A stretch of DNA of 64,000 nt from the NCBI GenBank assembly GCA_963763465.1, contig CAVXOS010000004.1:33879-97878 (forward strand), given 5' to 3'. Below, one piece after another: positions 5,656 to 60,572 of this stretch. A program made the position numbers and the translations under genes. The stretch is from an uncultured Gaiellaceae bacterium (GTDB lineage: Bacteria > Actinomycetota > Thermoleophilia > Gaiellales > Gaiellaceae). Below the pieces are notes generated by a model. It searched no databases. It was not told the origin of the DNA and saw only the letters and a program-made list of their open reading frames with translations. Each line of letters starts with the position of its first letter. Positions within the stretch are counted from its first letter, which is position 1.

Positions 5656-6941
5656 GACGCCTCGTATTCGTGCTCGTGCTGCAGCCTCCAGCGCACCTCG
5701 TCCGAGGCATCGGACTCCGGCGCCGCCTCGACGCGCGCCGACCGTGCGTCGAGCCAGTTCGCGTAGCGCGCCGCGAGGGGTGCCGCCGACGCGCCGTGTG
5801 CGAGGACGGAGAGCCCGACGGTGACGAACACCGTCGTCAGGATCAGCTCCTCGTTGGGAACGCCACCCTCCTCCTCGAGGACCAGGAGGCCGAAGACGAT
5901 CGACGCTGCGCCGCGCGGGCCGAACCACCCGAGGAACGCGACGGTCGGGCGACGGGCGCCGGTTCCGAGCATCGCGATGGCCACGGGAAGCATGCGCACG
6001 AGCGTGAGGCTCAGCACGGCGTAGAGCACGATCTGCCAGGTGCTGTCCCGGAGCGCCGGGCCGAGGAGGATCGCACCGAAGACGACGAATGTCGCCGCCG
6101 CCAGCAGCGCTCCGGTCTGCTCCATGAGGTACGAGATGTCGCCCCCGCGGTGCCGCCGAAGACCGCCGAACACCATCCCGCCGACGAAGGCGGCGATGAA
6201 GCCGGAGCCGCCGATCGCCTCCGCGAGCTCGAATGCGAGGAGCGACCCGGCGAGCGGCACGACCTGGAGCCACGTTGCGTCGATGAAGCGCCGTCCTCCC
6301 GCGTGAACGACGACCGCTGCCGCTGCGATGCCCGCGGCGACGCCGCCCAGCACGCCGTAGCCGATCTTCTCCAGCACGAGCTGCGCGGCTGCTCCGTCCC
6401 CGATCGCACCCTCCTGCGCCTCCGCGATCGCGAGCGCCACGAGGAAGAGCGGGACGCAGATGCCGTCGTTCAGCCCGCTCTCGACGTTGAGGCTCTGCCT
6501 CACCCGCGTGGGTAGGCGCGGGGACGTGACGACGGTCTGGCCGAGCGCCGCGTCCGTCGGGGCGAGGATGATCGCGACGAGCAGCGCCTCCGGCCACGCG
6601 AGGTCGCCGAGCAGCGCGAGGGCGAGGCCGAACCCGGCGAGGATCGTCAGCGGCAGGCCGATCGCGAGCAGGCGCGTGGGTATCCCGAGCGTCCGCCGCA
6701 GCGCCGTCAGGTCGATGCGCGACGCGTCGGAGAAGAGCACGACCGCGAGCGTGGCCTCCGCGAGCGTCCGCACCTCGATCCCGGTCGCCGAGGAGTCGAC
6801 GAGGCCGAGCGCCTCCACTCCGACGACGAGCCCCGCGGCCGTGAACACCATCGGCGCGGTGAGCCACGTTCCGTCGATGCGCCCGGAGATCGCGGCGAAT
6901 CCGAGGAGGATGGCGGCCAGCGCTGCGAGCTGCCAGTGCAC
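5652..6941 (-). CDS. cation:proton antiporter (CPA1, Na+/H+ exchanger family)
   Basis: 429-aa polytopic membrane ORF with Na_H_Exchanger-like sequence (LNDGICVPLF, FGPRGAASIVF). Confidence 0.85.
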   Translation of the reverse strand: MHWQLAALAAILLGFAAISGRIDGTWLTAPMVFTAAGLVVGVEALGLVDSSATGIEVRTLAEATLAVVLFSDASRIDLTALRRTLGIPTRLLAIGLPLTILAGFGLALALLGDLAWPEALLVAIILAPTDAALGQTVVTSPRLPTRVRQSLNVESGLNDGICVPLFLVALAIAEAQEGAIGDGAAAQLVLEKIGYGVLGGVAAGIAAAAVVVHAGGRRFIDATWLQVVPLAGSLLAFELAEAIGGSGFIAAFVGGMVFGGLRRHRGGDISYLMEQTGALLAAATFVVFGAILLGPALRDSTWQIVLYAVLSLTLVRMLPVAIAMLGTGARRPTVAFLGWFGPRGAASIVFGLLVLEEEGGVPNEELILTTVFVTVGLSVLAHGASAAPLAARYANWLDARSARVEAAPESDASDEVRWRLQHEHEYEAS

Positions 6942-7905: not shown

Positions 7906-8786
7906 TCCGGGACGCCGCCCTCGAGAATCGCCGCGAGCCTCGCCGAGTCGATGTTCCCGCCCGACACGATGCAGACGACGCGTCCCTCACCGGCGAGCCC
8001 GGCCATCGCTGCCGCCACGGGAAGCCCGGCCGCGCCCTCGCCGACGATGCGGGCGCGCTCGAGCAGCAGTCGGACGCCCGCCGCCGCGTCTGCGAGCGAG
8101 ACGGCGAACGCGTCCGTCACCAGCTCGCGCGCGTGCTCCCACATCCTCGGCAGCAGCGAGCCCGAGCCGGCGCCGTCGATGAACGACGGCCGATAGTCGA
8201 CCGCGACCGGTACCCGCCCGTTCGCGATCGCCGCCGCGAAGGGAGCGCCGCTCTCCGGCTCGCAGACGTAGATCTTCACGTCGGGCCGCAACGCGTGCAG
8301 CGCGCTCGCGATCCCGGTGGTGAGCCCGCCGCCGCCCCACGGGATGAGGACTGCGTCGAAGTCGTCGAGATCCTCGGCCAGCTCGAGGCCGATCGTGCCG
8401 TTCCCCGCCATGACGGGCGGATCCTGGACGGGATGGACGTAGAGCCCGTGGACACCTTCGCCGAGGTCGCGCTCGTCGTCCGCGTCGACCGCCGCCCACC
8501 ACTTCTCCCACGTGACGCGGACGATCCGCCCGCCGAGGCGCTCGACAGCGGCGAGCTTCGTCGGCGACGCGTTGTCCGGGACGACGATGGTCGCGGGCAC
8601 GCCGAGCTCGCGGGCCATCCAGGCGACGCCCTGCGCCATGTTCCCGGTGCTCGTCGTGACGAGGCCATCGGTGAGCGCCTCCGGCGGAGCGCTCAGCACG
8701 GCGTTCGCAGCCCCTCGCAGCTTGAACGAGGCGATCGGCTGCAGGTTCTCGAGCTTGAGCCAGATCTCGGCGGGTGCGTCGTCCAC
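7902..8786 (-). CDS. PLP-dependent threonine/serine dehydratase-like enzyme (start uncertain; homology continues to about 8867)
   Basis: ORF 7902..8786 has the PLP-lysine motif SFKLRGA. In-frame sequence upstream (IPLADIEAARERIAGQVVRTPLVRL) is the canonical N-terminus of this family, but it contains no ATG, GTG or TTG. Confidence 0.8.
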   Translation of the reverse strand: MDDAPAEIWLKLENLQPIASFKLRGAANAVLSAPPEALTDGLVTTSTGNMAQGVAWMARELGVPATIVVPDNASPTKLAAVERLGGRIVRVTWEKWWAAVDADDERDLGEGVHGLYVHPVQDPPVMAGNGTIGLELAEDLDDFDAVLIPWGGGGLTTGIASALHALRPDVKIYVCEPESGAPFAAAIANGRVPVAVDYRPSFIDGAGSGSLLPRMWEHARELVTDAFAVSLADAAAGVRLLLERARIVGEGAAGLPVAAAMAGLAGEGRVVCIVSGGNIDSARLAAILEGGVPD

Positions 8787-8863: not shown

Positions 8864-9826
8864 TCAGAAGGAAACCTCGACGCCCAGGCCGCGCTCGCGT
8901 GCACGCTGGACGACGAGCTCGGCCGAGGCGAGATCCTCCACCGCGATCCCCAGCGACTTGAATACCGTGAGCTCGTCCTCGTGCTCGCGGCCGGGGTGCG
9001 CGCCAAGCAGCACCTCGCCGAGCTCGGCTCTGATGTGGTCGGGACCGACGGCTCCTTCGGACGCGGCGATGATGTAGTCGCCGCCCTCGTTCAAGCAGGA
9101 CTCACGAAGATCGGTGAAGAGGGAACAGTGGGCGATGGTCTCCGTGTCGAGCTCGCGAGCCGTGGGGATGCTGGAGCCGACGGCGTTCACGTGCGCGCCG
9201 CGCGCCAGCCATCGCTTCTCGACGATCGGCTCGCGTGCGGCGGTCGTCGTGCACACCACCTCGGCTCCGAAGAGCGCCGCGTCGATGGACGGAGAGACCG
9301 TCGCTCCGACCTCTCCCGCGAGCTCCTCCGCGGCTTCGACCCGGCGTGCCCAGATCCGGATCTCCGGGTCGTCGAGGACGGCGCGCATCGCGTGCACGTG
9401 GCCGCGTGCCTGCGCTCCCGCTCCAAGGATCGCGACTCGTTGCGCGTCAGGCCTCGCAAGCGCCCTGGTCGCGACTGCCGAGACCGCAGCCGTACGGATC
9501 TCGGTGATCGGCGACGCGTTCATGATCGCGAGCAGCTCGCCGGTGTCGCCGTCGTGGAGCAGGACTGCGCCCATGTGCGTGTCCAGGCCGCGCGAGGGAT
9601 TGGCGGGCACGACGACGATCTCCTTGAGCCCGTACGAGGGCGTCGCGCCGCCACGGTAGGACGGCATGAGGCCGAGCAGCGTGTCCGCCCCTTGCGGCCG
9701 GGCCATCGAGCGCAGCGGGTTGAAGAGCTCTCCGCGCGCGAGCGAGGCGAGCACCTCCTCCATCGCCTCGATGCACGAGGGCATGTCGAGGAGCTCGCGG
9801 ACGTCGTGCCCGGAGAGGACGATCAC
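8864..9826 (-). CDS. ornithine cyclodeaminase / mu-crystallin family protein
   Basis: 320-aa ORF with the Rossmann motif VAILGAGAQARGH and family-typical ITEIRTAAVSAVATR. Confidence 0.85.
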   Translation of the reverse strand: MIVLSGHDVRELLDMPSCIEAMEEVLASLARGELFNPLRSMARPQGADTLLGLMPSYRGGATPSYGLKEIVVVPANPSRGLDTHMGAVLLHDGDTGELLAIMNASPITEIRTAAVSAVATRALARPDAQRVAILGAGAQARGHVHAMRAVLDDPEIRIWARRVEAAEELAGEVGATVSPSIDAALFGAEVVCTTTAAREPIVEKRWLARGAHVNAVGSSIPTARELDTETIAHCSLFTDLRESCLNEGGDYIIAASEGAVGPDHIRAELGEVLLGAHPGREHEDELTVFKSLGIAVEDLASAELVVQRARERGLGVEVSF

Positions 9827-10797
9827 GCGAACAACCTTCGCAGACGTTCATGCTCCTCGGTCGAAAGGTCGAGCGAGAGCGCCTCGCCCACCGGCTCGAG
9901 CTGCTCCGCGCGCGTCGGCCCGATCACGACCGCCGTCAGCTCGGGCACGCCGAGGAGCCACGCGATCGCGAGGCCGGCCATCGACACGCCGCGCTCTCGC
10001 GCCTCCTGCTCGAACGCCTCGAGCGCGTCGAAGGTCGTCTCCGACTCGAACTGCCGGTACCCCTCTGGGCGCTGCGTCATCCGCGATCCCTCCGGGTAGC
10101 TCTCGCCGCGCCGGTAGCGCCCGGCGAGCCAGCCTCCGGCGATCGGGCTGTGCGCCTGGAAGCCGAGCCCGTGCTCGCGACAGACCGGGAGCACGGTGTC
10201 GGCGTCGCCCTGGTCGAGCAGGGAGAACGAGCTCTGCGCCCACTCGTAGCGCGTGAGCCCCTCGAGCTCCGAGATCTCGACCGACTCCGCGAGCTGCTCG
10301 GCGGTGAAGTTGGACGCGCCGACGGCACCGACCTTTCCCGCTTTCACGAGCGCGTCGAAGGCGGACAGTGTCTCCTCGACGGGCGTCTCGACGTCGGGGG
10401 CGTGCGCCATGTACAGGCCGACGCGCTCGACGCCCAGCCGTCGCAGGCTCGTCTCGATCTGGCGCGTGATCCGACGTCGCGAGAGGCCGTGATCCTCGCC
10501 CGTGTCCATGGGGTTGAACGTCTTCGTCTCGATCGTGACCGCGTCTCTCACGGCGGGCTCCTTCGTCGCGAGCCACTCGCCGATCCAGGCCTCGCTGCGC
10601 CCGCCGCCGTAGGCATCCGCGGTGTCGAACGTCGTGATCCCGAGCTCCCAGGCGGCGTCCATGATCCGCGGAGCCTCCTCGCGCGAGATCCCCTGCCCGA
10701 AGAGCGCCGGCGCCGAGCCCACGCCGCCGAAGTTCCCGCAGCCGAGGACGATGCGCGTGATCGAGATGCCGCTGCGCCCGAGCTCTCGCCGCTCCAT
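9823..10797 (-). CDS. aldo/keto reductase
   Basis: 324-aa ORF. LGCGNFGG...ITTFDTADAYGGGRSE is the AKR signature. Its stop overlaps the downstream OCD start by 4 nt. Confidence 0.9.
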   Translation of the reverse strand: MERRELGRSGISITRIVLGCGNFGGVGSAPALFGQGISREEAPRIMDAAWELGITTFDTADAYGGGRSEAWIGEWLATKEPAVRDAVTIETKTFNPMDTGEDHGLSRRRITRQIETSLRRLGVERVGLYMAHAPDVETPVEETLSAFDALVKAGKVGAVGASNFTAEQLAESVEISELEGLTRYEWAQSSFSLLDQGDADTVLPVCREHGLGFQAHSPIAGGWLAGRYRRGESYPEGSRMTQRPEGYRQFESETTFDALEAFEQEARERGVSMAGLAIAWLLGVPELTAVVIGPTRAEQLEPVGEALSLDLSTEEHERLRRLFA

Positions 10798-10806
10798 CCC
10801 GTGATC

Positions 10807-11991
10807 CTACGAGGGCTCGGCCGCGGGCACGCGGAGCTGCGTCGGGATGCGGAACAGCACGAGCCCGCCCGCAATCGCGGCGAAGGCCGCGGCGACGAAC
10901 ACGCCGGAGTAGCCCGTGACGGACGCGACGGCGCCGAGGCTCAGGGCGCCGAGCGCGAAGCCGACGTCGATGCAGGCGCTGAACGTCCCGATCACGGAGC
11001 TGCGCTCGGAGACGTCCGCGCGATCGACGGCGAGCGTGAGCAAGGCGGGAAACGCCAGCGCCGTCCCCGCTGCGAAGACCGCGGTGCCGAGGTAGAGCCC
11101 AACGGGAGCCTGCCAGAGGCCGATGACGAGGAGCCCCGCGGCGAGTGACCCGAGCGCCGCTCCGGACGCGCGCTTGGCGCCGAGGCGGTCGGGCAGGCGC
11201 CGACCGAAGACCCGGATCGAGATCACGATCGCGGAGTAGACGAAGAACACCCACCCGGCTCCGCTCAGCCCGAGCTCCCGCGCGTAGAGCGCGACGAAGG
11301 CGTTGAAGCCCGCGAACCCGAACGCCGAAGCGATGAGGACGAGCCCGGGCGCAAGGGCGGCCGGATGAATCAGGCGGCTCTGCGGTGTCTCCGTCGTCGC
11401 CGGCTTGGTCTCGCGCAGCGAGATCCCTGCGAGCGCGGAACCGATGGCGCAGCTTGCCGCAGCGATCCACACGGCGTCGTAGCTCCCGTGGCTGTGGATC
11501 GCCTCGCCGACGACGGGTCCGATGGCAAGCCCGCCCCAGACTCCGAGCGAGTAGAGACTGACGGCCTCACCGCGCCTCTCCTCCGGGGCGACGTCGGTGA
11601 CCACCGTCGCCGCTCCCACGAAGACCATGCCTTCGCCGATTCCGGTCACGAGGCGCAGGAGCACCAGCAGGGCGAGCGTGTCGACGAACGTGTACGCGGC
11701 CACCGATGCAGCCACGATCAGCGGCCCGACGATGACAAGGACGCGTCGCCCGCGCCGATCGGCCAGCCTCCCCGCTAGCGGCTGGACGAGGAGAGCCGTC
11801 GGGCTCGCGGCTGCGATTGCGATGCCGACGCCCACGCTCCCCGTTCCCAAAGGACCCTTGGCGAAGAGCGGCAGAACCGGAAGCAGCATCCCGATCGGGA
11901 ACGAGACGCCGAGAATCGCGAGCACCGCGAGGACGAACGGCCTCGTCAGGACACGATCTGTTGGCATCCGCTCGATCCAAGCAGATCGCAT
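10807..11991 (-). CDS. MFS transporter
   Basis: C-terminal about 390 aa of ORF 10807..12834. 12-TM-like hydrophobic protein with the GRLADRRGRR loop motif. ATG at 11991 or 11967. The remaining upstream ORF is Arg-rich artifact sequence. Confidence 0.8.
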   Translation of the reverse strand: MRSAWIERMPTDRVLTRPFVLAVLAILGVSFPIGMLLPVLPLFAKGPLGTGSVGVGIAIAAASPTALLVQPLAGRLADRRGRRVLVIVGPLIVAASVAAYTFVDTLALLVLLRLVTGIGEGMVFVGAATVVTDVAPEERRGEAVSLYSLGVWGGLAIGPVVGEAIHSHGSYDAVWIAAASCAIGSALAGISLRETKPATTETPQSRLIHPAALAPGLVLIASAFGFAGFNAFVALYARELGLSGAGWVFFVYSAIVISIRVFGRRLPDRLGAKRASGAALGSLAAGLLVIGLWQAPVGLYLGTAVFAAGTALAFPALLTLAVDRADVSERSSVIGTFSACIDVGFALGALSLGAVASVTGYSGVFVAAAFAAIAGGLVLFRIPTQLRVPAAEPS

Positions 11992-12042
11992 CGGCGTGCC
12001 TGGTCGCGAGGAACAGCACGTGTCGAGCCGAACCAGTGCGCG

Positions 12043-12720
12043 ATGACCCTCAGCGATGCGGCCGTTCGAACGCAGGAACGTCGAGAAGCGGCTCCGGCGG
12101 CTGCGACCGTGCTCGTCGTTCTTGCCGCGCTCGCGTTCGTCAGCGAATCGCAAGGATGGGAGCTGCTCGGGCTCCCCTGGTGGATCTGGCTCGCACTGGC
12201 AGTACCCGCCTTGCTTCTCACCATCGATCTTCTGCTCGCGCCCGCCGGCAAGGGTCTCGTTCGATCGCGCATGGCGGCTTTGGTCTTGCTGGGACTTCTC
12301 GCGGCTGGAAACTTCGCGGCACTCGGGATCTTGGTCGCGGGGCTCGTAACCGCGGACACCGCCGATCTCAGTGGAGGCGAGCTCCTGCTCACCGGGTTTG
12401 CCATCTACGCCACGGACCTTGTGGTCTTCGGCCTCATCTTCTGGGAGGTCGACGCTGGCGGGCCGTCTGTGCGGCGAGATGCCCACGCGCGTGAGGCAGC
12501 AGACTTCCGGTTCCCGCAGGACGACTCCGCGAAGGAGGAGTGGAAGCCGCAGGTGTGGGATTACCTCTACGTCTCGCTGACGAACTCGATCGCGTTCAGT
12601 CCTACAGACACGATGCCGCTCTCGCTGCGTGCGAAAGCGCTCATGGGGCTCGAGTCGTTCGTCTCGGCGATCACGGTTCTTCTCGTCGCGGCACGTGCCG
12701 TGAACGTGCTCGGTTCGTAG
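12043..12720 (+). CDS. DUF1345 domain membrane protein
   Basis: 225-aa ORF with four TM segments and the C-terminal motif YVSLTNSIAFSPTD typical of DUF1345. Confidence 0.7.
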   Translation: MTLSDAAVRTQERREAAPAAATVLVVLAALAFVSESQGWELLGLPWWIWLALAVPALLLTIDLLLAPAGKGLVRSRMAALVLLGLLAAGNFAALGILVAGLVTADTADLSGGELLLTGFAIYATDLVVFGLIFWEVDAGGPSVRRDAHAREAADFRFPQDDSAKEEWKPQVWDYLYVSLTNSIAFSPTDTMPLSLRAKALMGLESFVSAITVLLVAARAVNVLGS

Positions 12721-12748
12721 AGGACGTGCCTGCGCTACGGTCAGCCTC

Positions 12749-13807
12749 GTGACCGAGGGGATCAGCCTCCAGGAGCTCCAGCTCGCGGCACGGAACCACG
12801 CGATGCCGCTCGAGGCGCTGCGCTGGGACGTCACGCCGATCGGCCTCCACTACCTCCTCACGCACTACGACATCCCGGACGTCGATCCGGAGGCGTGGCG
12901 GCTCGACGTCGGGGGCCTGGTCGACCGGCCGTTGTCGCTCTCGCTCGACGACCTGCGTTCCCGCCCCGCGGTGGAGGTCGCGGTCACGATGGAGTGCGCC
13001 GGAAACGGTCGTGTGCACATCGAACCGCACGTCGTCAGTCAACCGTGGCTGCTCGAAGCCGTCGGGACTGCGCGCTGGCGCGGTGTCGCCGTTGCCGCGC
13101 TGCTCGAGGAGGCCGGCGTCCAGGAGGACGCGATCGAGGTGCTCTTCACCGGGCTCGATCGCGGCGTCGAAGGCGGGGAGGAGCAGGCGTACGAGCGGAG
13201 CCTCACCGTCGAGGAGGTCATGGCGGGCGACGCCGTGCTCGCGTACGAGGTCAACGGCGTTCCGCTCCCACCGCAGCACGGCTTCCCGCTGCGCCTCGTC
13301 GTTCCGGGTTGGTACGGGATGACGAGCGTGAAGTGGCTGTCGCGCATCACACTCATCGACGAGCCGTTCGACGGCTACCAGATGCGTCACTCCTATCGCG
13401 TCCGCCGAGACGAGGACGACGCGGGAGAGCCCATCACGACCATCGCCCCCCGGTCGCTGATGACACCGCCCGGTGTTCCCGAGTTCGCGACCCGCGCGCG
13501 TGTTCTGGGGGCGGGAACCTGCGAGGTCTCGGGGCGCGCGTGGTCAGGGCGTGCCGAGATCATCGGCGTCGACGTCTCGAGCGACGGCGGTGAGACCTGG
13601 TCGGAGGCGGAGCTCGGGCCGGCGACGCTCGGCCGGTGGGCGTGGCGTGCGTGGCGCTTCGCTTGGACTGCCGAGCCCGGTGAATACGAGCTCTGCTGTC
13701 GCGCCCGAGATGCCGCAGGCAATGAGCAGCCCCTGGAACCCGCATGGAATGTCGGCGGTTACGTGAACAATGCGGTGCAGTGCGTCAGCGTCACCGTGAC
13801 GGAGTAG
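12749..13807 (+). CDS. sulfite oxidase-like molybdopterin oxidoreductase
   Basis: 352-aa ORF with GTG start. The TMECAGNGR molybdenum-cofactor cysteine motif, PLRLVVPGWYGMTSVKWL and a dimerisation-domain tail fit the SUOX family. Confidence 0.85.
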   Translation: MTEGISLQELQLAARNHAMPLEALRWDVTPIGLHYLLTHYDIPDVDPEAWRLDVGGLVDRPLSLSLDDLRSRPAVEVAVTMECAGNGRVHIEPHVVSQPWLLEAVGTARWRGVAVAALLEEAGVQEDAIEVLFTGLDRGVEGGEEQAYERSLTVEEVMAGDAVLAYEVNGVPLPPQHGFPLRLVVPGWYGMTSVKWLSRITLIDEPFDGYQMRHSYRVRRDEDDAGEPITTIAPRSLMTPPGVPEFATRARVLGAGTCEVSGRAWSGRAEIIGVDVSSDGGETWSEAELGPATLGRWAWRAWRFAWTAEPGEYELCCRARDAAGNEQPLEPAWNVGGYVNNAVQCVSVTVTE

Positions 13808-13818
13808 CCGCCGAACGG

Positions 13819-13846
13819 ACGAAGCCCGCTCGAGAGCGGGCTTCGT
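13819..13846. terminator. perfect 12-bp hairpin between convergent genes
   Basis: ACGAAGCCCGCT-CGAG-AGCGGGCTTCGT lies 12 nt after the sulfite-oxidase-like stop. No clear U-tract on the + strand. Confidence 0.5.
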
Positions 13847-13854
13847 GGGTGAAA

Positions 13855-13870
13855 CGGGCACGAATGCCCG
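13855..13870 (-). terminator. 6-bp hairpin followed by TTTCA on the minus strand, downstream of the tRNA-like gene
   Basis: Minus-strand CGGGCA-TTCG-TGCCCG-TTTCACCC lies about 40 nt after the 3' end of the tRNA-like gene. Confidence 0.4.
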
Positions 13871-13911: not shown

Positions 13912-13998
13912 CGGAGGGCGCCGGACTCGAACCGGAACCGGCTTTCGCCGGTCGCTGACGCTGTCGACGTCGCATCCCGCCTCGGGATTTCACCCTCC
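13912..13998 (-). tRNA. non-canonical class-II tRNA-like gene (8/4 allo-tRNA / selC-like architecture; anticodon unresolved)
   Basis: Hand-folded minus strand: GGAGGGTG|AA|ATCCCG-AGG-CGGGAT|GCGACG-TCGACAG-CGTC(A)GC|G|ACCGGC-GAAA-GCCGGT|T|CCGG-TTCGAGT-CCGG|CGCCCTCC|G. It has an 8-bp acceptor stem, 6-bp D stem, long variable hairpin, canonical TTCGAGT T-loop and G73. No CCA is encoded. Confidence 0.6.
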
Positions 13999-14045
13999 GA
14001 CGCCATGAGCCACGGTAGAGGCGCTCTTGCCGGTGAATCGTCTGT

Positions 14046-14546
14046 GTGCTCGAGTCGGAACGCATTCGGCGCACTTCTGTGACCTATCGTGTTGCCGTGC
14101 GAGCGCGCGTCGTAGCCGGAGTCGTCATCGCCGTTGCTCTAGCGTCGGTCGCCGCGCGGAGCGGAGCGGCTGCTCCGGCGCAGCTGAAGCTCGACGGCGT
14201 CCCATTTCGTCCCGAGCTGGCCCTCACCTCCTCACAGCAGCAGCGCGGGCTCATGTTCCGCAAGAAAGCGCCGTCCGACGGAATGCTCTTCGTCTTCCGC
14301 CGCGCGACGTCGGGCGGCTTCTGGATGAAGAACACGCTCGTGCCGCTCTCGATCGTCTTCTTCGACACCGCGGGCAGGCGCGTTCGCAGGATCTCGATGA
14401 CGCCGTGCCGGAAGGATCCGTGCCCGATCTACGACCCGGGCAAGCAGTACCGCTACGCGCTCGAGCTGCCTGCAGACGACTCGAGGCCGGCGCTACGCAT
14501 CGGCCCGGCGGCTGAGCTCCGACGCCTCGCCCGCTCAGCGAGCTGA
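14046..14546 (+). CDS. DUF192 domain protein (secreted/lipid-anchored)
   Basis: ORF 14046..14546 with GTG start. An alternative GTG at 14079 lies just before the signal-like segment VVAGVVIAVALASVAA. The core FWMKNTLVPLSIVFFD is typical of DUF192. Confidence 0.75.
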   Translation: MLESERIRRTSVTYRVAVRARVVAGVVIAVALASVAARSGAAAPAQLKLDGVPFRPELALTSSQQQRGLMFRKKAPSDGMLFVFRRATSGGFWMKNTLVPLSIVFFDTAGRRVRRISMTPCRKDPCPIYDPGKQYRYALELPADDSRPALRIGPAAELRRLARSAS

Positions 14547-52719: not shown

Positions 52720-53234
52720 GGACCGAGAATGAAGACCAGCTGCGCGCCGCCGAGATCCTTGCCGCGCATGCCGTCGAGCGGTGTGACGAGCTTCACGCCG
52801 AGGTCCCTGCCGAGCCGCCTGCCCTCACCGGCGAAGCCGGGCCTGTACATCACGATGCTGCGGGGGACGAGCTCCGGGGCATTCGTGACGGTGCCGATCC
52901 TGTAGCCGCGCGAATGCACGCGCGACGCCGCTGCGGCGGCGGCGCCGGTGCGGCCGTTCCCGTTCAGGACGAGGACCACGGTCTTCGAGCGCGCGCGCCT
53001 GGCGACGGGGGTCGGCGCGGGCTTGCGCGCGACGCTCCGGTGCGCCTGCTGCACGGGCGCGAGCGCGTGCTTCTCCGCTGCGAGCTGAACGCGGTCGGAG
53101 GCCCAGCCGACGAGCTTGCCGCCTCCGATGAGGAGAAGGAGGAGGAGCTCGACCGCGGCGACGGCCACGGCGACGTAGGCGGCGGTGCGCCAGGGACGGA
53201 CGAGCGCGTCTGGAGCAGAGAGCGGATGATCCAC
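52716..53234 (-). CDS. LytR_C (LytR cell-envelope-related C-terminal) domain protein
   Basis: GTG at 53234 in ORF 52716..54248. One TM segment followed by VVLVLNGNGRTGAAAAAASRVHSRGYRIGTVTNA, typical of LytR_C. Confidence 0.7.
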   Translation of the reverse strand: MDHPLSAPDALVRPWRTAAYVAVAVAAVELLLLLLIGGGKLVGWASDRVQLAAEKHALAPVQQAHRSVARKPAPTPVARRARSKTVVLVLNGNGRTGAAAAAASRVHSRGYRIGTVTNAPELVPRSIVMYRPGFAGEGRRLGRDLGVKLVTPLDGMRGKDLGGAQLVFILGP

Positions 53235-53260
53235 GGGCGAACGTTTCGCCCGCCGCCGGC

Positions 53261-55891: not shown

Positions 55892-55964
55892 GCCGACGTA
55901 GCTCAGCTGGTAGAGCACTTCACTCGTAATGAAGGGGTCCCCGGTTCGAGTCCGGGCGTCGGCT
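55892..55964 (+). tRNA. tRNA-Thr (anticodon CGU)
   Basis: Hand-folded canonical 73-nt cloverleaf: GCCGACG|TA|GCTC-AGCTGGTA-GAGC|A|CTTCA-CTCGTAA-TGAAG|GGGTC|CCCGG-TTCGAGT-CCGGG|CGTCGGC|T. No CCA is encoded. Confidence 0.9.
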
Positions 55965-55979: not shown

Positions 55980-56304
55980 GTTTCCGGAGAGCCAAAGCGC
56001 CGCCTAGTGCATCGTGGCGGCCCCCCTCGGATCGCGGCGCCGATATAACGTACCGCCGTGGAGGAACTCGACCAGCCGCCGACACGGCCGCGCATGAGAT
56101 CCGCGCCATGGCGGCGGCGTGGGTCGCACGGTTCAACGAACGCGCCGCCACTGGGCAGCGTCCGCATGGTGGAGTCGCCGCGTGCTGACGGGGTAGCCGT
56201 TGGGGGGGCGAGCGGCTCGACTGTGGTCCCGTCCGAAGTCGGTAAGGCACGGACGGATTGAGCTGCGGGCGCTTCTCGCAAGACCCGAAGGGGTGGATAG
56301 CCGC

Positions 56305-57471
56305 GTGACACGACCGGATGCCGGAGTTCTCTATCAGGGCGGTCCTCCGGCCTTCGCGACGGTCCTCACGCCCGGTCGCCCCAACATTCTTCAGCCGAAG
56401 CGGACGGCCTCGCTGATCGACGCCGCGATGCGCCGCAACTGGCTTACGAACGATGGCCCGCTCGTCCGAGAACTCGAAGAACGCTTCGCCGAGTTTCAGA
56501 ACGTCCGACACTGCGTCGCTGTTGCCAGCGCCACGGCTGGCCTCCAGCTTGCTGCCAGGGCGATCGGCATGACGGGCGACATCCTAATGCCCGCGTTCAC
56601 CTTCATCGGTAGCGCACATGCTCTGACCTGGATCGGTCTCCAGCCGATCTTCTGCGACGTATCTCGCGCTACGCACACGCTCGATCCTCAGAGCGTTGAA
56701 GCAGCAATCACGAGTGCGACCGGGGGCATTCTGGCCACACACCTCTGGGGCCAACCATCCGACGTCGAGGGACTGCAGCAGATCGCGGATCGCCATGATG
56801 TTCCGTTGCTCTTTGACGCTGCCCACGCCACCGGTAGTCGCTACCGATCGGCTCCAGTTGGGGGCTTCGGGGATGCGGAGGTGTTCAGCCTGCATGCCAC
56901 GAAGTCAATCAACGGTCTCGAGGGCGGCATTGTTGCGACGAATGACGACGACGTGGCGGCACAGGTGCGGCTGTTCCGGAATTTTGGGTTCGTGGCGGAG
57001 GACGCGGTGAGCGGCGTCGGCATCAACGCGAAGATGAACGAGTTTTCCGCCGCGATGGCACTCGCGAATCTCGAGTGCTACGACCAGCTAGAGGCCCACG
57101 ACCGGGAGATCAGCGCGGCGTATCGCCAGGCCCTCGCAGGCCTCGATGGCATTTCGGTGCACGAATGCACACCGGACTCCGCAAGGTGCGAGCACTATGC
57201 CGTACTGGAAGTGTCGGAGACCGCGCCTGTCGGACGCGACGCGCTCCGAGAAGTTCTGGCGGCGGAAAACGTACTGACACGCCGCTACTTCTTTCCGGGC
57301 TGCCATCGATCGCCGCCGTACGATCGTCAGGAATGGTCACCGATGCGGGTCACGGATGTCCTGTGCCGGACCGTACTGCAGTTGCCGACCGGTCTGCAGC
57401 TAACCTCAGACGACGCCGCGACGATCGCGGCCATCGTCGCCAGAACGGTCACAGCCGAAGCCGCGGCATGA
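56305..57471 (+). CDS. DegT/DnrJ/EryC1/StrS family sugar aminotransferase
   Basis: GTG at 56305 in ORF 56200..57471. WLTNDGPLVRELEERFAEF, FDAAHATG and the FSLHATKSINGLEGG PLP-lysine motif. Confidence 0.85.
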   Translation: MTRPDAGVLYQGGPPAFATVLTPGRPNILQPKRTASLIDAAMRRNWLTNDGPLVRELEERFAEFQNVRHCVAVASATAGLQLAARAIGMTGDILMPAFTFIGSAHALTWIGLQPIFCDVSRATHTLDPQSVEAAITSATGGILATHLWGQPSDVEGLQQIADRHDVPLLFDAAHATGSRYRSAPVGGFGDAEVFSLHATKSINGLEGGIVATNDDDVAAQVRLFRNFGFVAEDAVSGVGINAKMNEFSAAMALANLECYDQLEAHDREISAAYRQALAGLDGISVHECTPDSARCEHYAVLEVSETAPVGRDALREVLAAENVLTRRYFFPGCHRSPPYDRQEWSPMRVTDVLCRTVLQLPTGLQLTSDDAATIAAIVARTVTAEAAA

Positions 57472-58382
57472 GGTTCGCCGCCCTGGTGGGTGTCAAGGAC
57501 GAGGTTGAGCTGATTGGCGCCTGCGTGGCGCAGCTCCGAAACATCGGCGTCGACCAGATTATCGTCTCGGATTACGGATCCACGGACGGCACACTCGACA
57601 TCCTCGCGGACGAACGTCGCTGCGGCGACCTAGTCGTGAAGTCGGTCGACGTGTCGACGATCGCGGACTTCGACTCTTGGTCCATTCGAGAGATGGCCCT
57701 CGCGAGGTCGACTGGGGCCGACTGGGTTCTGTTTTTGGACGCCGACGAGTTCTGCATTCCGGCGTCGGGAACACTGCGCGGCTGTCGTCATCTGCTCGAC
57801 GCCGATGTCCTCTACGTTGATCGCTTCAACGTCGCCCTCACTTGGCAACAGCAATCGATGCCGGTCGCGGCGTGGTTCGAGAGCCAAGCTGATCTCCTGC
57901 TGTATACGACGATCCCGGGGGACTATCGACAGTTCGTCGAGGAGCGTCCGGACGTCCCATTCATCACGCTCATGCCGCCGCCGAAGATCATGGCGCGCCC
58001 ACATGCGATTTCAGGTATCGCACCCGGGTCACATGGCGTGTATGAGCGGCCAGGCGACACACCGGTCCGTCGGTTTGAGACGCAAGACCTGCTCGTCGCT
58101 CACGTTGCCTTTTCGACCGTCGGGAGATTCCAGCGAAAGGTCGACAACATCCGCGCGGAACTCGCCCAGAGCTCGGAGTATTTCCACGGCCACAATGGCT
58201 GGCACTGGAAGCGATGGGCCGCAATGACCGACCGCGAGGCTGATCACGAATTTGCAAGGCAGATGCTCGACGGCGATGCGCTTTTGCGTCTGAGGCACAG
58301 TGCCGTTGTTCGCTCCGCAAGAGAGATCTTTGCGGAGCGCTCGCGCGTCAGTGCTGATTCGTCTGAGATGGCGCGGGCCTAG
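57468..58382 (+). CDS. glycosyltransferase family 2-like protein
   Basis: ATG at 57468 overlaps the DegT stop (ATGA). IIVSDYGSTDGT and LFLDADEF (DxD) motifs. Confidence 0.75.
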   Translation: MRFAALVGVKDEVELIGACVAQLRNIGVDQIIVSDYGSTDGTLDILADERRCGDLVVKSVDVSTIADFDSWSIREMALARSTGADWVLFLDADEFCIPASGTLRGCRHLLDADVLYVDRFNVALTWQQQSMPVAAWFESQADLLLYTTIPGDYRQFVEERPDVPFITLMPPPKIMARPHAISGIAPGSHGVYERPGDTPVRRFETQDLLVAHVAFSTVGRFQRKVDNIRAELAQSSEYFHGHNGWHWKRWAAMTDREADHEFARQMLDGDALLRLRHSAVVRSAREIFAERSRVSADSSEMARA

Positions 58383-58822
58383 AGTTATGCGTCGCGGGGT
58401 TGACGGTTGACCCCTCCTGCACCTGCGGACGAGGAGCACGAGCTCGACGCGGGCGGGCTGAACTAGGGCGCCAGGGCTGCTAGCGGTCGAGCCACCATTT
58501 CTCCGGTGCCAAAGGGGCCTACTAGATTCAGTACCACGTCGCGGATGCGCGACCCCTGCGCGGCTGAAAAGCAGAGCGGTGAGCGGGATCACGCGTACGT
58601 CTCGAGCAAGTTTGGCGTCGGCCACGTTGAGGGCCTGGCGCCGCCCGCTGGCGCTCGTCCACGCTCACGTCGGCGTTGAGGAGGTCGCGGTTTGTTAAAC
58701 GATTGAAGTAGCCCGTCCAGTTCTCCTCAAGCCCGGCGCAGTACGGCCCGGGATTCGTCCAATCCGGGACAGGCCTGGTGCGCATCGATGACGACGTACG
58801 CCGAAGGGACAGTGCGAACCAG

Positions 58823-59713
58823 TCAACCCCCCGGCGAAGGGGATGACGGATTCCCGGTCCGAACGACCTCGAGTTGTTGTTCCAGCGCTCTTTGATGGAC
58901 GGCCCAGATTTCCGGATCTTTCACGCCGACTTGCCGACCCACTCCAAGAACCGAAGTCGGCCGGCGTCGAAGGTCTCCCGGGACCTCATGACCGAGCAAA
59001 GCGAGTCGGGATGCTGCCGGTAGCGATACCAGTTTCGGTTTCGGGCGATCACCGGATATCGGAGGAAGAGTTTGACGTTCAGGGCCATGTCCTCGTAGAG
59101 AAAGCCGGCCTCGTCCGTATAGCCTCCCACCTTCTCGATCGCGTCGCGTCGGGCGAATACGCCGACCGGTTCGTTCGACTCGTTGCTGAGGAAGGCCAGC
59201 ATGGCGGCCGGCGGGGGATGATGGTGTCGAAAGGAACGGCGCTCGTGTATATCTGAGTGACGTCGGCGGCGCCCGGCTCCCCCGTCCACGTGTACCACAT
59301 CTGGACCGGCCCGTATACGACTGCGGCGCCCGGATGGGCCTCCAGGATCCGCACCTTGTCCTCCAAGGTAGTGGGCGTAAGGAGTCGTCGGCATCCAGCC
59401 TGGCGATATACCGGCCCCGTGAGCTCCTCTGACCCAGGTTTCGGGATTCGGTTATGCCGCGGTTCGCGCGTCCCGGATGCTCGAGATACCGGATCTTGCC
59501 GGGCCAGTCCCGGGCGTACCGCTTCGCGGTCTCCGGGCTCCGGTCGGTGGATCCGTCCTCCACGAGAAGAACCTCCCAGAAAGGGTACGTCTGCGCAATC
59601 ACGCCTTCGATCGCTTCGGCGAGAAACCTTTCGGCATTCAGGATGGGGATGATTACGCTAACGACGGGCTGTCCATCCCTCGCGTGCAGGGAGTCGCTCG
59701 GGCTCGTCGTCAT
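58823..59713 (-). pseudogene. glycosyltransferase family 2, interrupted by at least 3 frameshifts
   Basis: The N-terminus VSVIIPILNAERFLAEAIEGVIAQTYPFWEVLLVEDGSTD...ARLDADD is in the frame of ORF 58823..59713. It continues as LEDKVRILEAHPGAAVVYGP (ORF 59079..59366), then PPAAMLAFLSNESNEPVGVFARRDAIEKVGGY...YRQHPDS (ORF 58921..59394), then returns to the first frame for the last about 30 aa. Confidence 0.8.
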
Positions 59714-59828
59714 CGTCAGCCTCGACCAGGCAGGACGACGGCGGAGTCCGGTGAGCCTGAGGTCATCTGGCGCGCATCTTCCTCAAAAGGGACGAAATCC
59801 GCATTGAAGCCGGACATCCTGCGGGGCC

Positions 59829-60572
59829 TCATTTTCCCTCACCCGTTCCCGCGAACGTCCGAAGCAGCCGAACGTCGTGGAGCATTCCGCGGACCTCGTC
59901 CACCGAGTTGAACATCATCACGTCGATGATCGAAAGCGCGGGCAGAAACGGCGAAACGACCTGTCGGTACGGCCGCAGTTCCTGCTCAAGGAATTCCAGT
60001 TGCACGCCGTGGTCCGCGTACTTCGACGGGTCGAACAACGCTGCGCCCCCCGCCGGATTGCAATAACGTTCCACCCCCGGCAGGGCCCTGCAGGTCGCGA
60101 GGGCCCAGTCGCCCGGCCGGGGGTCGTCGGGAACCGGAACCTGCATTGCCGAGAAGTCGAGAATCTCGGTTCGGATGCCCAGGTGCGCGCACAGGCGGCG
60201 CAACGCCGCGCGGTCGACATCGGCGATAGTCGTGTGGTCCCCGGCGACCACGTCGGCGAGGATGGCGCGCACCGCGTCGAAGTGTGGTGCTCGCTTTCGG
60301 TAGTGGTCGACCTGCGCGAGGAGCCGCTCGCGCCATGGCTGTCCGTCATCGACCAGCTTTGCTCGGATCGGCGTAGACCGAGAGCTCGCCTGGAGCGGGA
60401 CGCGCACGTACTGCCAGTCTTCACCGCCGGGCTTCAGGATCCGGTTCCGGTCGACCCATCCGTGCCGGATGAACTGCGCTGTGTCGAACAGGACGAAGAC
60501 GTCGACGTGCTCGACGAGGCTGAAGTAGCCGAGGTGCGGGAAGAAGTACGGCTGCATCATCCCAAGTCGCAC
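59829..60572 (-). CDS. WbqC family protein
   Basis: GTG at 60572 (or ATG at 60560) in ORF 59829..60935. (V)RLGMMQPYFFPHLGYFSL is the hallmark WbqC N-terminus. Confidence 0.8.
   Translation of the reverse strand: MRLGMMQPYFFPHLGYFSLVEHVDVFVLFDTAQFIRHGWVDRNRILKPGGEDWQYVRVPLQASSRSTPIRAKLVDDGQPWRERLLAQVDHYRKRAPHFDAVRAILADVVAGDHTTIADVDRAALRRLCAHLGIRTEILDFSAMQVPVPDDPRPGDWALATCRALPGVERYCNPAGGAALFDPSKYADHGVQLEFLEQELRPYRQVVSPFLPALSIIDVMMFNSVDEVRGMLHDVRLLRTFAGTGEGK

Follow-up and report, generated by a model that had tools for sequence, protein, structure and literature searches.

The stretch of DNA analysed here, called the window below, comprises 64,000 nucleotides (nt) from an uncultured Gaiellaceae bacterium (contig CAVXOS010000004.1) and has a G+C content of about 69%. 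At positions 13912..13998 of its minus strand lies a gene for a tRNA-like RNA in which the acceptor branch is divided into 8 acceptor and 4 T-stem base pairs (bp), here referred to as 8/4. The gene sits in a 271-nt spacer between a sulfite-oxidase-like molybdoenzyme gene (12749..13807, plus strand; PF00174 and PF03404) and a DUF192 gene (14079..14546, plus strand; probable GTG start at 14079, by alignment with relatives), which is followed by an amidase_3 gene. The best named matches of the molybdoenzyme gene are in metagenome-assembled genomes (MAGs) of Gaiellaceae, a family of the Thermoleophilia (Actinomycetota); the gene serves below as a synteny anchor, and no functional link to the tRNA-like gene is implied. 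The tRNA-like gene is 87 nt long, with the mature 5´ G at 13998 and the discriminator G73 at 13912. It does not encode CCA, which is normal for this host, because the window's one canonical example, the tRNA-Thr gene at 55892-55964, is likewise without an encoded CCA. An earlier note, made from the sequence alone, described an unusual cloverleaf here. Almost certainly, this is an intact gene that belongs to a conserved family of 8/4 tRNAs.

Without constraints, the minimum free energy (MFE) fold of the 87-nt gene is a cloverleaf with -49.5 kcal/mol (z = -4.0; equalled by 0 of 200 shuffles). It is the cloverleaf of the earlier note, on exactly the sequence given there. In minus-strand order, the first half reads GGAGGGUG-AA-AUCCCG-AGG-CGGGAU-GCGACG-UCGACAG-CGUCAGC and the second half GACCGGCGAAAGCCGGUU-CCGG-UUCGAGU-CCGG-CGCCCUCC-G. 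The 5´ strand of the acceptor stem, GGAGGGUG (13991..13998), pairs with CGCCCUCC (13913-13920) over 8 bp including U7.G66, and position 8 is thus paired, unlike U8 of canonical tRNA. An AA linker leads to the D arm, AUCCCG-AGG-CGGGAU (13974..13988), a 6-bp stem with a 3-nt loop that holds the invariant G18 G19; in the window copy the same arm can alternatively be drawn as 5 bp with a 5-nt loop. The anticodon arm, GCGACG-UCGACAG-CGUC(A)GC (13954..13973), has its loop at 13961-13967 and a bulged A, A43, at 13956. Its stem exceeds 5 bp in total and comprises 6 pairs with the one bulge, arranged as 4-5 + 2 bp: four pairs close the 7-nt loop, to which the MFE fold adds U32.G38. The standard register places C33 at 13966, the non-serine anticodon GAC at 13963-13965 and A37 at 13962, so that a Val anticodon preceded by C33 is read as previously proposed. 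The long variable arm, GACCGGC-GAAA-GCCGGUU (13936..13953), is the hairpin with a GAAA loop noticed before and has 7 bp in the MFE fold. The T arm, CCGG-UUCGAGU-CCGG (13921..13935), consists of a canonical T loop on a 4-bp stem. The Rfam alignment draws a C(-1):G73 pair and hence a 9/4 branch, a reading that was rejected; the -1 base is frequently A in relatives, and the pair is therefore not conserved.

Standard detectors, which the earlier note had proposed running, do not recover the gene. ARAGORN makes no call for it, and in an Rfam scan it reaches the gathering score of no family, RF00005 included. Its best sub-threshold match is the tRNA-Sec family RF01852, whose cut-off of 47 bits it misses with a score of 34.7 (E = 3e-5).

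Relatives were collected with the 3´ 22-mer of the gene, which covers the T loop, the T stem and the 3´ acceptor strand. This key was searched in metagenome contigs and in a one-genome-per-species collection, and at least 120 stretches matched in each; the family counts given here derive from the 22-mer matches listed and are thus lower bounds. At least 210 full-length copies carry the 22-mer, representing at least 202 distinct sequences of 82-95 nt. Each begins with GGAGGG(U/C)G and, when folded singly, most adopt an 8/4 cloverleaf. The 80 genome records among the matches listed are nearly all MAGs of Solirubrobacterales, Gaiellales/Gaiellaceae, Thermoleophilaceae or "uncultured Actinomycetes/Actinomycetota", the exceptions being one Chloroflexota and one 3´-only fragment from Bryobacterales. 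The earlier view that such genes are rare does not hold, as they are common in Thermoleophilia and often multi-copy. Several contigs (e.g., L008, L013, L059, L118, L182 and L237; L numbers denote individual matched stretches) have 2-3 copies within a few kb. On the metagenomic contig L118, three members at 1536-1624, 6598-6687 and 8433-8523, with anticodons GAC, GAU and GAC, lie within 7 kb with ordinary genes between them. Judging from this contig, the copy number per genome may be substantial.

A non-redundant set of 149 members, mutually less than 88% identical and including the window copy, was aligned (alignment A2), and a covariance model (R1) was built from it. R1, with the window copy among its training sequences, scores the window gene at 87.6 bits (E = 7.5e-16, model positions 1-91) and finds no second copy in the window. 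An orthologue on L248 that is independent of the training set scores 84.7 bits. All of 17 family loci scanned stay below every Rfam gathering threshold, and of 227 members, 124 are given a Val, Leu or Ile label by ARAGORN. Because Rfam misses the family and ARAGORN assigns about half of it to Val, Leu or Ile, tRNA complements, and the decoding of codons deduced from them, may be wrong. Full-text searching of the literature turned up no description of the window or family sequences or of such tRNAs from Thermoleophilia or Solirubrobacterales. The family is thus large and common in soil actinobacteria of the class Thermoleophilia, and apparently undescribed.

The family extends beyond the search key. 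A divergent 8/4 paralogue with the anticodon GCC (Gly) lies at L056:4122-4210 (plus strand), about 230 nt from a conventional member of the family at L056:3804-3893 (minus strand; subfamily C, see below), and therefore the family reaches beyond both the 22-mer and anticodons with A35. The 3´ pattern is absent from the viral contigs searched, and a single phage match was seen. Matches of the 3´ half to Ensifer adhaerens plasmids in blastn (E = 6e-3) are not tRNA-like and were discarded.

Selection has acted on the structure. RNAalifold recovers the cloverleaf from alignment A2. When the explicit 8/4 structure is imposed on the 149 members, 92.7% of cells are paired vs 77.7% in shuffles, and the covariation score is 0.441 vs 0.166, a value reached by 0 of 500 shuffles; slid registers give at most 0.121. 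Compensatory double changes occur in 5/5 D-stem pairs, 5/5 anticodon-stem pairs and 5/6 of the variable-arm pairs counted, or 15 pairs across the three helices. The covariation that the earlier note had suggested looking for is thus present, as are syntenic orthologues (L175 and L248, see below).

The acceptor and T stems are invariant in the 22-mer set because their 3´ strand was the search key, and evidence on these stems comes from members that were located without it. The L056:4122-4210 paralogue has the acceptor strands GGAGCGUG/CGCGCUCC and the T stem GCGG/CCGC. Its changes, C5:G68 and a G:C swap in the T stem, are both compensated, and it too folds as an 8/4 cloverleaf (z = -3.8). L118:6598-6687 and L248 have U7-A66 where the window gene has U7.G66. 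Of 149 relatives, 148 have the pair G8-C65, which defines the 8/4 division; drawn as 7/5, nearly all members would have U49 opposite C65. The acceptor branch is therefore 12 bp long and split 8/4, as first proposed from the window copy. The acceptor/T arm as a whole is almost invariant across orders, and the other three arms drift with compensation. G18 G19 of the D loop are invariant among the 149 relatives. Together with the canonical T loop UUCGAGU, which is however part of the search key, they fit a normal tRNA elbow.

Three features of the window copy had been suspected of being sequence errors, namely the bulged A, the 3-nt D loop and C33. The AGG loop is the rule in the subfamily to which the window gene belongs. 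A bulged base occurs at the same site of the 3´ strand of the anticodon stem in L175 (where it is U), L205, L244, L030, L199 and L242, and C33 is found in 34 of 148 non-redundant members, across all three subfamilies. Because all three recur in homologues from many independent assemblies, a sequencing-error origin is excluded.

The anticodon spectrum is narrow. Read in the standard register, the 148 members have GAC (63), GAG (34), GAU (24), CAG (14), CAC (8), GAA (2), GCC (2) and GGU (1), and are thus essentially limited to Val, Ile and Leu codons that end in C/U or G. A35 is found in 145 of 148 members, and UCA in none. The loops are 7 nt, with U33 in 112 of 148 and C33 in the 34 already mentioned, and position 37 is a purine in all 148. 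Within one synteny class, the anticodon flips among GAC, GAU, GAG and CAC with A35 constant. Three subfamilies can be distinguished. Subfamily A, the window type, has 73 distinct sequences with the AGG D loop and mainly the anticodons GAG and GAC, and comes mainly from Gaiellales and "uncultured Actinomycetes". Subfamily B (111 distinct sequences; mainly Solirubrobacterales) has a 6-bp D stem with an RGGY tetraloop and mainly the anticodons GAC and GAU. Subfamily C (18 distinct sequences; mainly Solirubrobacterales) shares the AGG D loop with A and has mainly NAG anticodons followed by G37.

A register shifted by -1, in which N33-G34-A35 would be a Ser anticodon (UGA/CGA), was considered and is disfavoured. 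It gives U32 in only 38% and purine 36 in only 34% of members, and the standard register fits better, with U33 in 76% and purine 37 in 100%. The triplet N33-G34-A35 (window 13964-13966) nevertheless reads UGA or CGA in 99% of members, i.e. Ser anticodons displaced by one position. The displacement perhaps records an origin from tRNA-Ser(UGA/CGA) through a 1-nt shift of the loop.

At its locus, the window gene has the appearance of a stand-alone transcription unit. A -10-like hexamer TACCGT (14012..14017, minus strand), 13 nt upstream of the mature 5´ end, is a candidate promoter; the canonical tRNA-Thr gene has TAGACT 11 nt upstream. On the downstream side, the hairpin CGGGCA-UUCG-UGCCCG followed by UUU (13852..13870, minus strand) is a candidate terminator, of which L175 and L248 keep the stem with another loop. 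A 9-bp hairpin, GAAGCCCGC-N6-GCGGGCUUC (13821..13844), lies between the convergent sulfite-oxidase-like and tRNA-like genes and is kept in the orthologues. TACCGT, a GGCGYC leader and both hairpins are conserved among the three syntenic orthologues (the window, L175 and L248) while the rest of the spacer diverges, in keeping with the earlier suggestion of an isolated gene between hairpins. The assignments as promoter and terminator stay provisional because a generic scan of the locus for sigma-70 promoters and terminators found nothing.

The two orthologues also indicate how the locus evolved. L175 is a Gaiellaceae MAG with a sulfite oxidase 79% identical to that of the window, and L248 is an 812-kb contig (sulfite oxidase 81% identical) on which the gene was missed by the 22-mer and found by the covariance model. 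Both have the anticodon GAC with U33, and C33 of the window copy is therefore derived. The gene is absent from the locus in 7 of the 9 relatives examined (L001-L004 and L245-L247), three of which keep a 3´ relic. The four closest syntenic relatives, L001-L004, are among those without it, and the more distant L175 and L248 have it in the same place. The 34-nt spacers L003:3208-3241 and L004:3985-4018 align to the T loop, the 3´ acceptor strand and the trailer at 27-28 of 33 nt (0 of 2000 shuffles); the relic in the spacer L001:5060-5095 is weaker, its score being reached by 31 of 2000 shuffles. The three relics, of about 33 nt each, match the gene in position and strand, between sulfite oxidase and DUF192. 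From these relics and the distant orthologues, it follows that the gene is ancestral at the locus and was lost by deletion, and hence that it is dispensable there. Recent insertion or a mobile element does not explain a gene with orthologues at the same site and relics in gene-less relatives.

Several features bear on the amino acid that the RNA would carry. The window gene has a class-II long variable arm, G73, G2-C71 and A3-U70, and these are Ser-type features, as the earlier note had recognized in part. One family-carrying MAG, L155, has a canonical tRNA-Ser(UGA) (L155:1162-1255) about 900 nt from a family member. G1-C72, G2-C71, A3-U70 and G4-C69 are identical in this tRNA and in the window family, and the two also share G73, a long variable arm and a canonical T loop. 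Unlike the window gene, the canonical tRNA-Ser is of the 7/5 type and has U8, a large D loop on a short stem and an anticodon for serine. Seryl-tRNA synthetase (SerRS) does not read the anticodon. E. coli tRNA-Val, -Ile and -Leu use A73, with which G73 of the family disagrees. Taken together, the variable arm, G73 and the first four acceptor pairs point to probable charging by SerRS.

We propose the following sequence of events. The RNA would be transcribed from its own promoter, the ends of the transcript matured by RNase P and 3´ processing, and CCA added post-transcriptionally, as for tRNA-Thr of the window. SerRS would then charge the RNA through its long variable arm and acceptor stem, blind to the anticodon. 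Finally, the anticodon GAC would pair with the Val codons GUC and GUU, giving low-level insertion of Ser in competition with the normal tRNA-Val. As C33 replaces U33, the window copy is probably a weakened decoder. A precedent exists in the (8/4) allo-tRNA-GAG of Silvibacterium bohemicum, which puts Ser at CUC in E. coli (PMC5389517). We infer transcription, serylation and ribosomal decoding from the features described above, and give the full mechanism, i.e. anticodon-blind serylation followed by weak decoding of GUC/GUU by an RNA of the allo-tRNA type, a probability of roughly 0.55.

Several observations weigh against this mechanism. The derived C33 stands at a position where U33 is near-universal, and the anticodon stem of the window gene is bulged. 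The near-invariant A35 is not predicted by anticodon-blind serylation and hints that some factor reads the anticodon; together with the frozen acceptor/T arm, it is left unexplained by a simple missense model. If Ser were inserted constitutively at the Val, Ile and Leu codons that a high-GC genome uses most, harm would be expected; nevertheless, the family is conserved and multi-copy. Finally, the gene is dispensable at its locus, 7 of 9 relatives being without it.

Some of these observations would be accommodated by a tRNA-like RNA that is perhaps aminoacylated but kept off the ribosome, with another reader recognising its acceptor/T minihelix and its anticodon. Such an RNA might be an aminoacyl donor for a tRNA-dependent transferase, a sensor or decoy in regulation by branched-chain amino acids (of the T-box type or another), or a decoy or target of an anticodon nuclease. 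An acceptor/T arm that is nearly invariant across orders, next to three arms that drift with compensation, is in line with this idea; invariant A35 and anticodons for Val, Ile and Leu only suggest sequence-specific recognition; and decoding would be ill served by the C33 of 23% of members and by the bulges that are frequent in the anticodon stem. A partner is not apparent from the gene neighbourhood, however. A Pfam scan of 138 open reading frames (ORFs) flanking 69 members found MFS transporters (13), epimerase/RmlD-type enzymes (11-12), ion channels (12), AdoHcy hydrolase (7) and further families, and among the commonest Pfams of these ORFs there was no enrichment of transferase, aminoacyl-tRNA synthetase, toxin-antitoxin, integrase or transposase genes. 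Scanning of the window at Rfam thresholds revealed no riboswitch, of the T-box type or otherwise. Furthermore, the 7-nt loop, the purine at 37 throughout and G37 in the stable NAG subfamily are constraints of decoding tRNAs. We regard a non-translational role as doubtful.

Near-invariant A35 could also be read by the synthetases themselves. If ValRS, IleRS and possibly LeuRS charged the RNAs by their anticodons, the window copy would be an odd-shaped tRNA-Val, there would be no mistranslation, and orthologues could exchange one anticodon for another neutrally. For the Val and Ile synthetases of E. coli, A35 and N36 are major identity elements. The anticodons of the family are limited to amino acids with closely related class Ia synthetases, and the flips between GAC, GAU and GAG within one synteny class with A35 fixed are what such charging would permit. 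This cognate charging is unlikely, since G73 takes the place of the A73 of E. coli tRNA-Val, -Ile and -Leu, and the acceptor stem begins with the same four pairs as in the canonical tRNA-Ser of L155. To our knowledge, the class-II long variable arm is otherwise restricted in bacteria to Ser, Leu, Tyr and Sec tRNAs. Bacterial LeuRS does not read the anticodon, and still one third of the members carry NAG.

It is improbable that the window gene is merely on its way to becoming a pseudogene, disabled by the change of U33 to C at a loss-prone locus. It is true that C33 is derived when compared with both syntenic orthologues, that 7 of the 9 relatives examined have lost the gene from the locus by deletion, and that ARAGORN does not call it. 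On the other hand, all stems are intact and the MFE structure is the full cloverleaf, the promoter-like box and terminators are conserved, and the gene scores as high with the family model as other members (87.6 vs 84.7 bits). Moreover, with C33 in 23% of members from all three subfamilies, this base appears to be tolerated or selected.

Very improbable, finally, is the selC-like reading of the earlier note, in the form of a selC variant with a sense anticodon or of a tRNA-Ser or tRNA-Sec distorted by assembly indels: tRNA-Sec is the best Rfam match at 34.7 bits, but this is below the cut-off and 0 of 17 family loci scanned pass any Rfam threshold, the acceptor branch has 12 bp and not 13, UCA occurs in 0 of 148 members, SelA-, SelB-, SelD- and SerRS-type Pfam domains are all missing from the 35 window ORFs scanned (a set that does not include the neighbours at 8867-12849), and the indel-like features recur in hundreds of independent assemblies, which contradicts the error scenario.

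The window gene shares with bacterial tRNA-Sec (RF01852) an 8-bp acceptor stem, a 6-bp D stem, an extended anticodon stem, a long variable arm, G73 and SerRS-type identity. With a T stem of 4 and not 5 bp, a branch of 12 and not 13 bp, GAC instead of UCA and a score of 34.7 vs 47 bits, it is not a tRNA-Sec. A further difference is that Sec machinery is not seen in the 35 ORFs of the window that were scanned.

The closest resemblance is to the (8/4) allo-tRNAs that Mukai et al. (2017; Nucleic Acids Res 45:2776; PMC5389517) described in Clostridia, Proteobacteria, Acidobacteria and phages, a likeness already pointed out in the earlier note. The published anticodons span 35 codons, with UAU, GCG and GUC dominating and Val found once, and the genes are often near toxin-antitoxin or transposon genes (PMC5389517). 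Compared by description, the two groups have in common a 12-bp branch split 8/4, a long tRNA-Sec-like D stem, a long variable arm, G73, a non-serine anticodon that may be GAG, and sub-threshold matches to tRNA-Sec; the tetraloop that completes the D arm of the allo-tRNAs is matched in subfamily B, by RGGY with Y20. The present family is unlike them in its hosts, which are Thermoleophilia (Actinomycetota), in anticodons confined to Val, Ile and Leu with A35 nearly invariant, in its near-invariant acceptor/T arm, and in the 3-nt (or 5-nt) D loop of the window subfamily. Its genes occupy conserved housekeeping positions and have no association with toxin-antitoxin or transposon genes. In architecture, the family is that of an (8/4) allo-tRNA; being set beside the published ones by description, the likeness does not separate homology from convergence.

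Among eukaryotes, the tRNA-Ser(CAG) of Candida and the CUG clade combines Ser identity (long variable arm, G73) with a Leu anticodon, and a base other than U at position 33 dampens decoding and mischarging. Subfamily C, with NAG anticodons, G37 and frequent C33, is reminiscent of this tRNA. The tRNA-Ser(CAG) differs from the family in being eukaryotic, of canonical 7/5 architecture and tied to a fixed codon reassignment; canonical tRNAs presumably coexist with the 8/4 family in its hosts.

One intriguing possibility, which we put forward tentatively, is that the Thermoleophilia as a class maintain, in many genomes with more than one copy, a parallel set of 8/4 tRNAs that decode the commonest Val, Ile and Leu codons and are charged with Ser or, after conversion by SelA, with Sec. 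The Sec option is considered because the D arm is tRNA-Sec-like. If such a set exists, free-living bacteria would have conserved and regulated ambiguous decoding of hydrophobic codons, with position 33 and the stem bulges tuning its strength.

More generally, changes of the genetic code start from tRNAs with mismatched identity and anticodon, which also provide a chassis for genetic-code expansion. Reports of 8/4 allo-tRNAs have hitherto been scattered over Acidobacteria, Clostridia, Proteobacteria and phages, with toxin-antitoxin genes frequently nearby; the present gene opens up a family of more than 200 distinct sequences. The family is distinctive in being typical of an abundant soil class, the Thermoleophilia, and in its housekeeping positions, almost frozen acceptor/T arm and anticodons for Val, Ile and Leu. 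If charged with Ser, it would be the first phylogenetically broad system for testing adaptive or regulated mistranslation. If not, it would represent tRNA-shaped RNAs of a new class, with a reader that recognises G34/C34-A35.

In addition to the full-length members, 27 further copies truncated at the 5´ end were found elsewhere. Their neighbours are the same housekeeping genes as those of intact copies, and no integrase was found near the 27; a role as attachment sites of integrative elements is therefore not supported. They look like relics of the kind seen in L001, L003 and L004. It is the 3´ end that frequently survives, in these three relics as in the 27 truncated copies. One truncated copy adjoins a gene for a HipA-family kinase toxin (L183:4395-5945, plus strand), the only toxin-type neighbour seen.

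Elsewhere in the window, ARAGORN reports a "tRNA-???" of 93 nt with a 4-base anticodon, cgag, at 53168-53260 (plus strand), which folds no better than its shuffles (z = -0.19), has no Rfam match and appears to be a false positive. No repeat of the 3´ end of tRNA-Thr was found in the window. Directly downstream of tRNA-Thr (55892-55964), the region 56000-60500 has a G+C content of 0.63-0.64 compared with about 0.70, and encodes a cluster of the surface-polysaccharide type with a DegT aminotransferase, two family-2 glycosyltransferases and WbqC.

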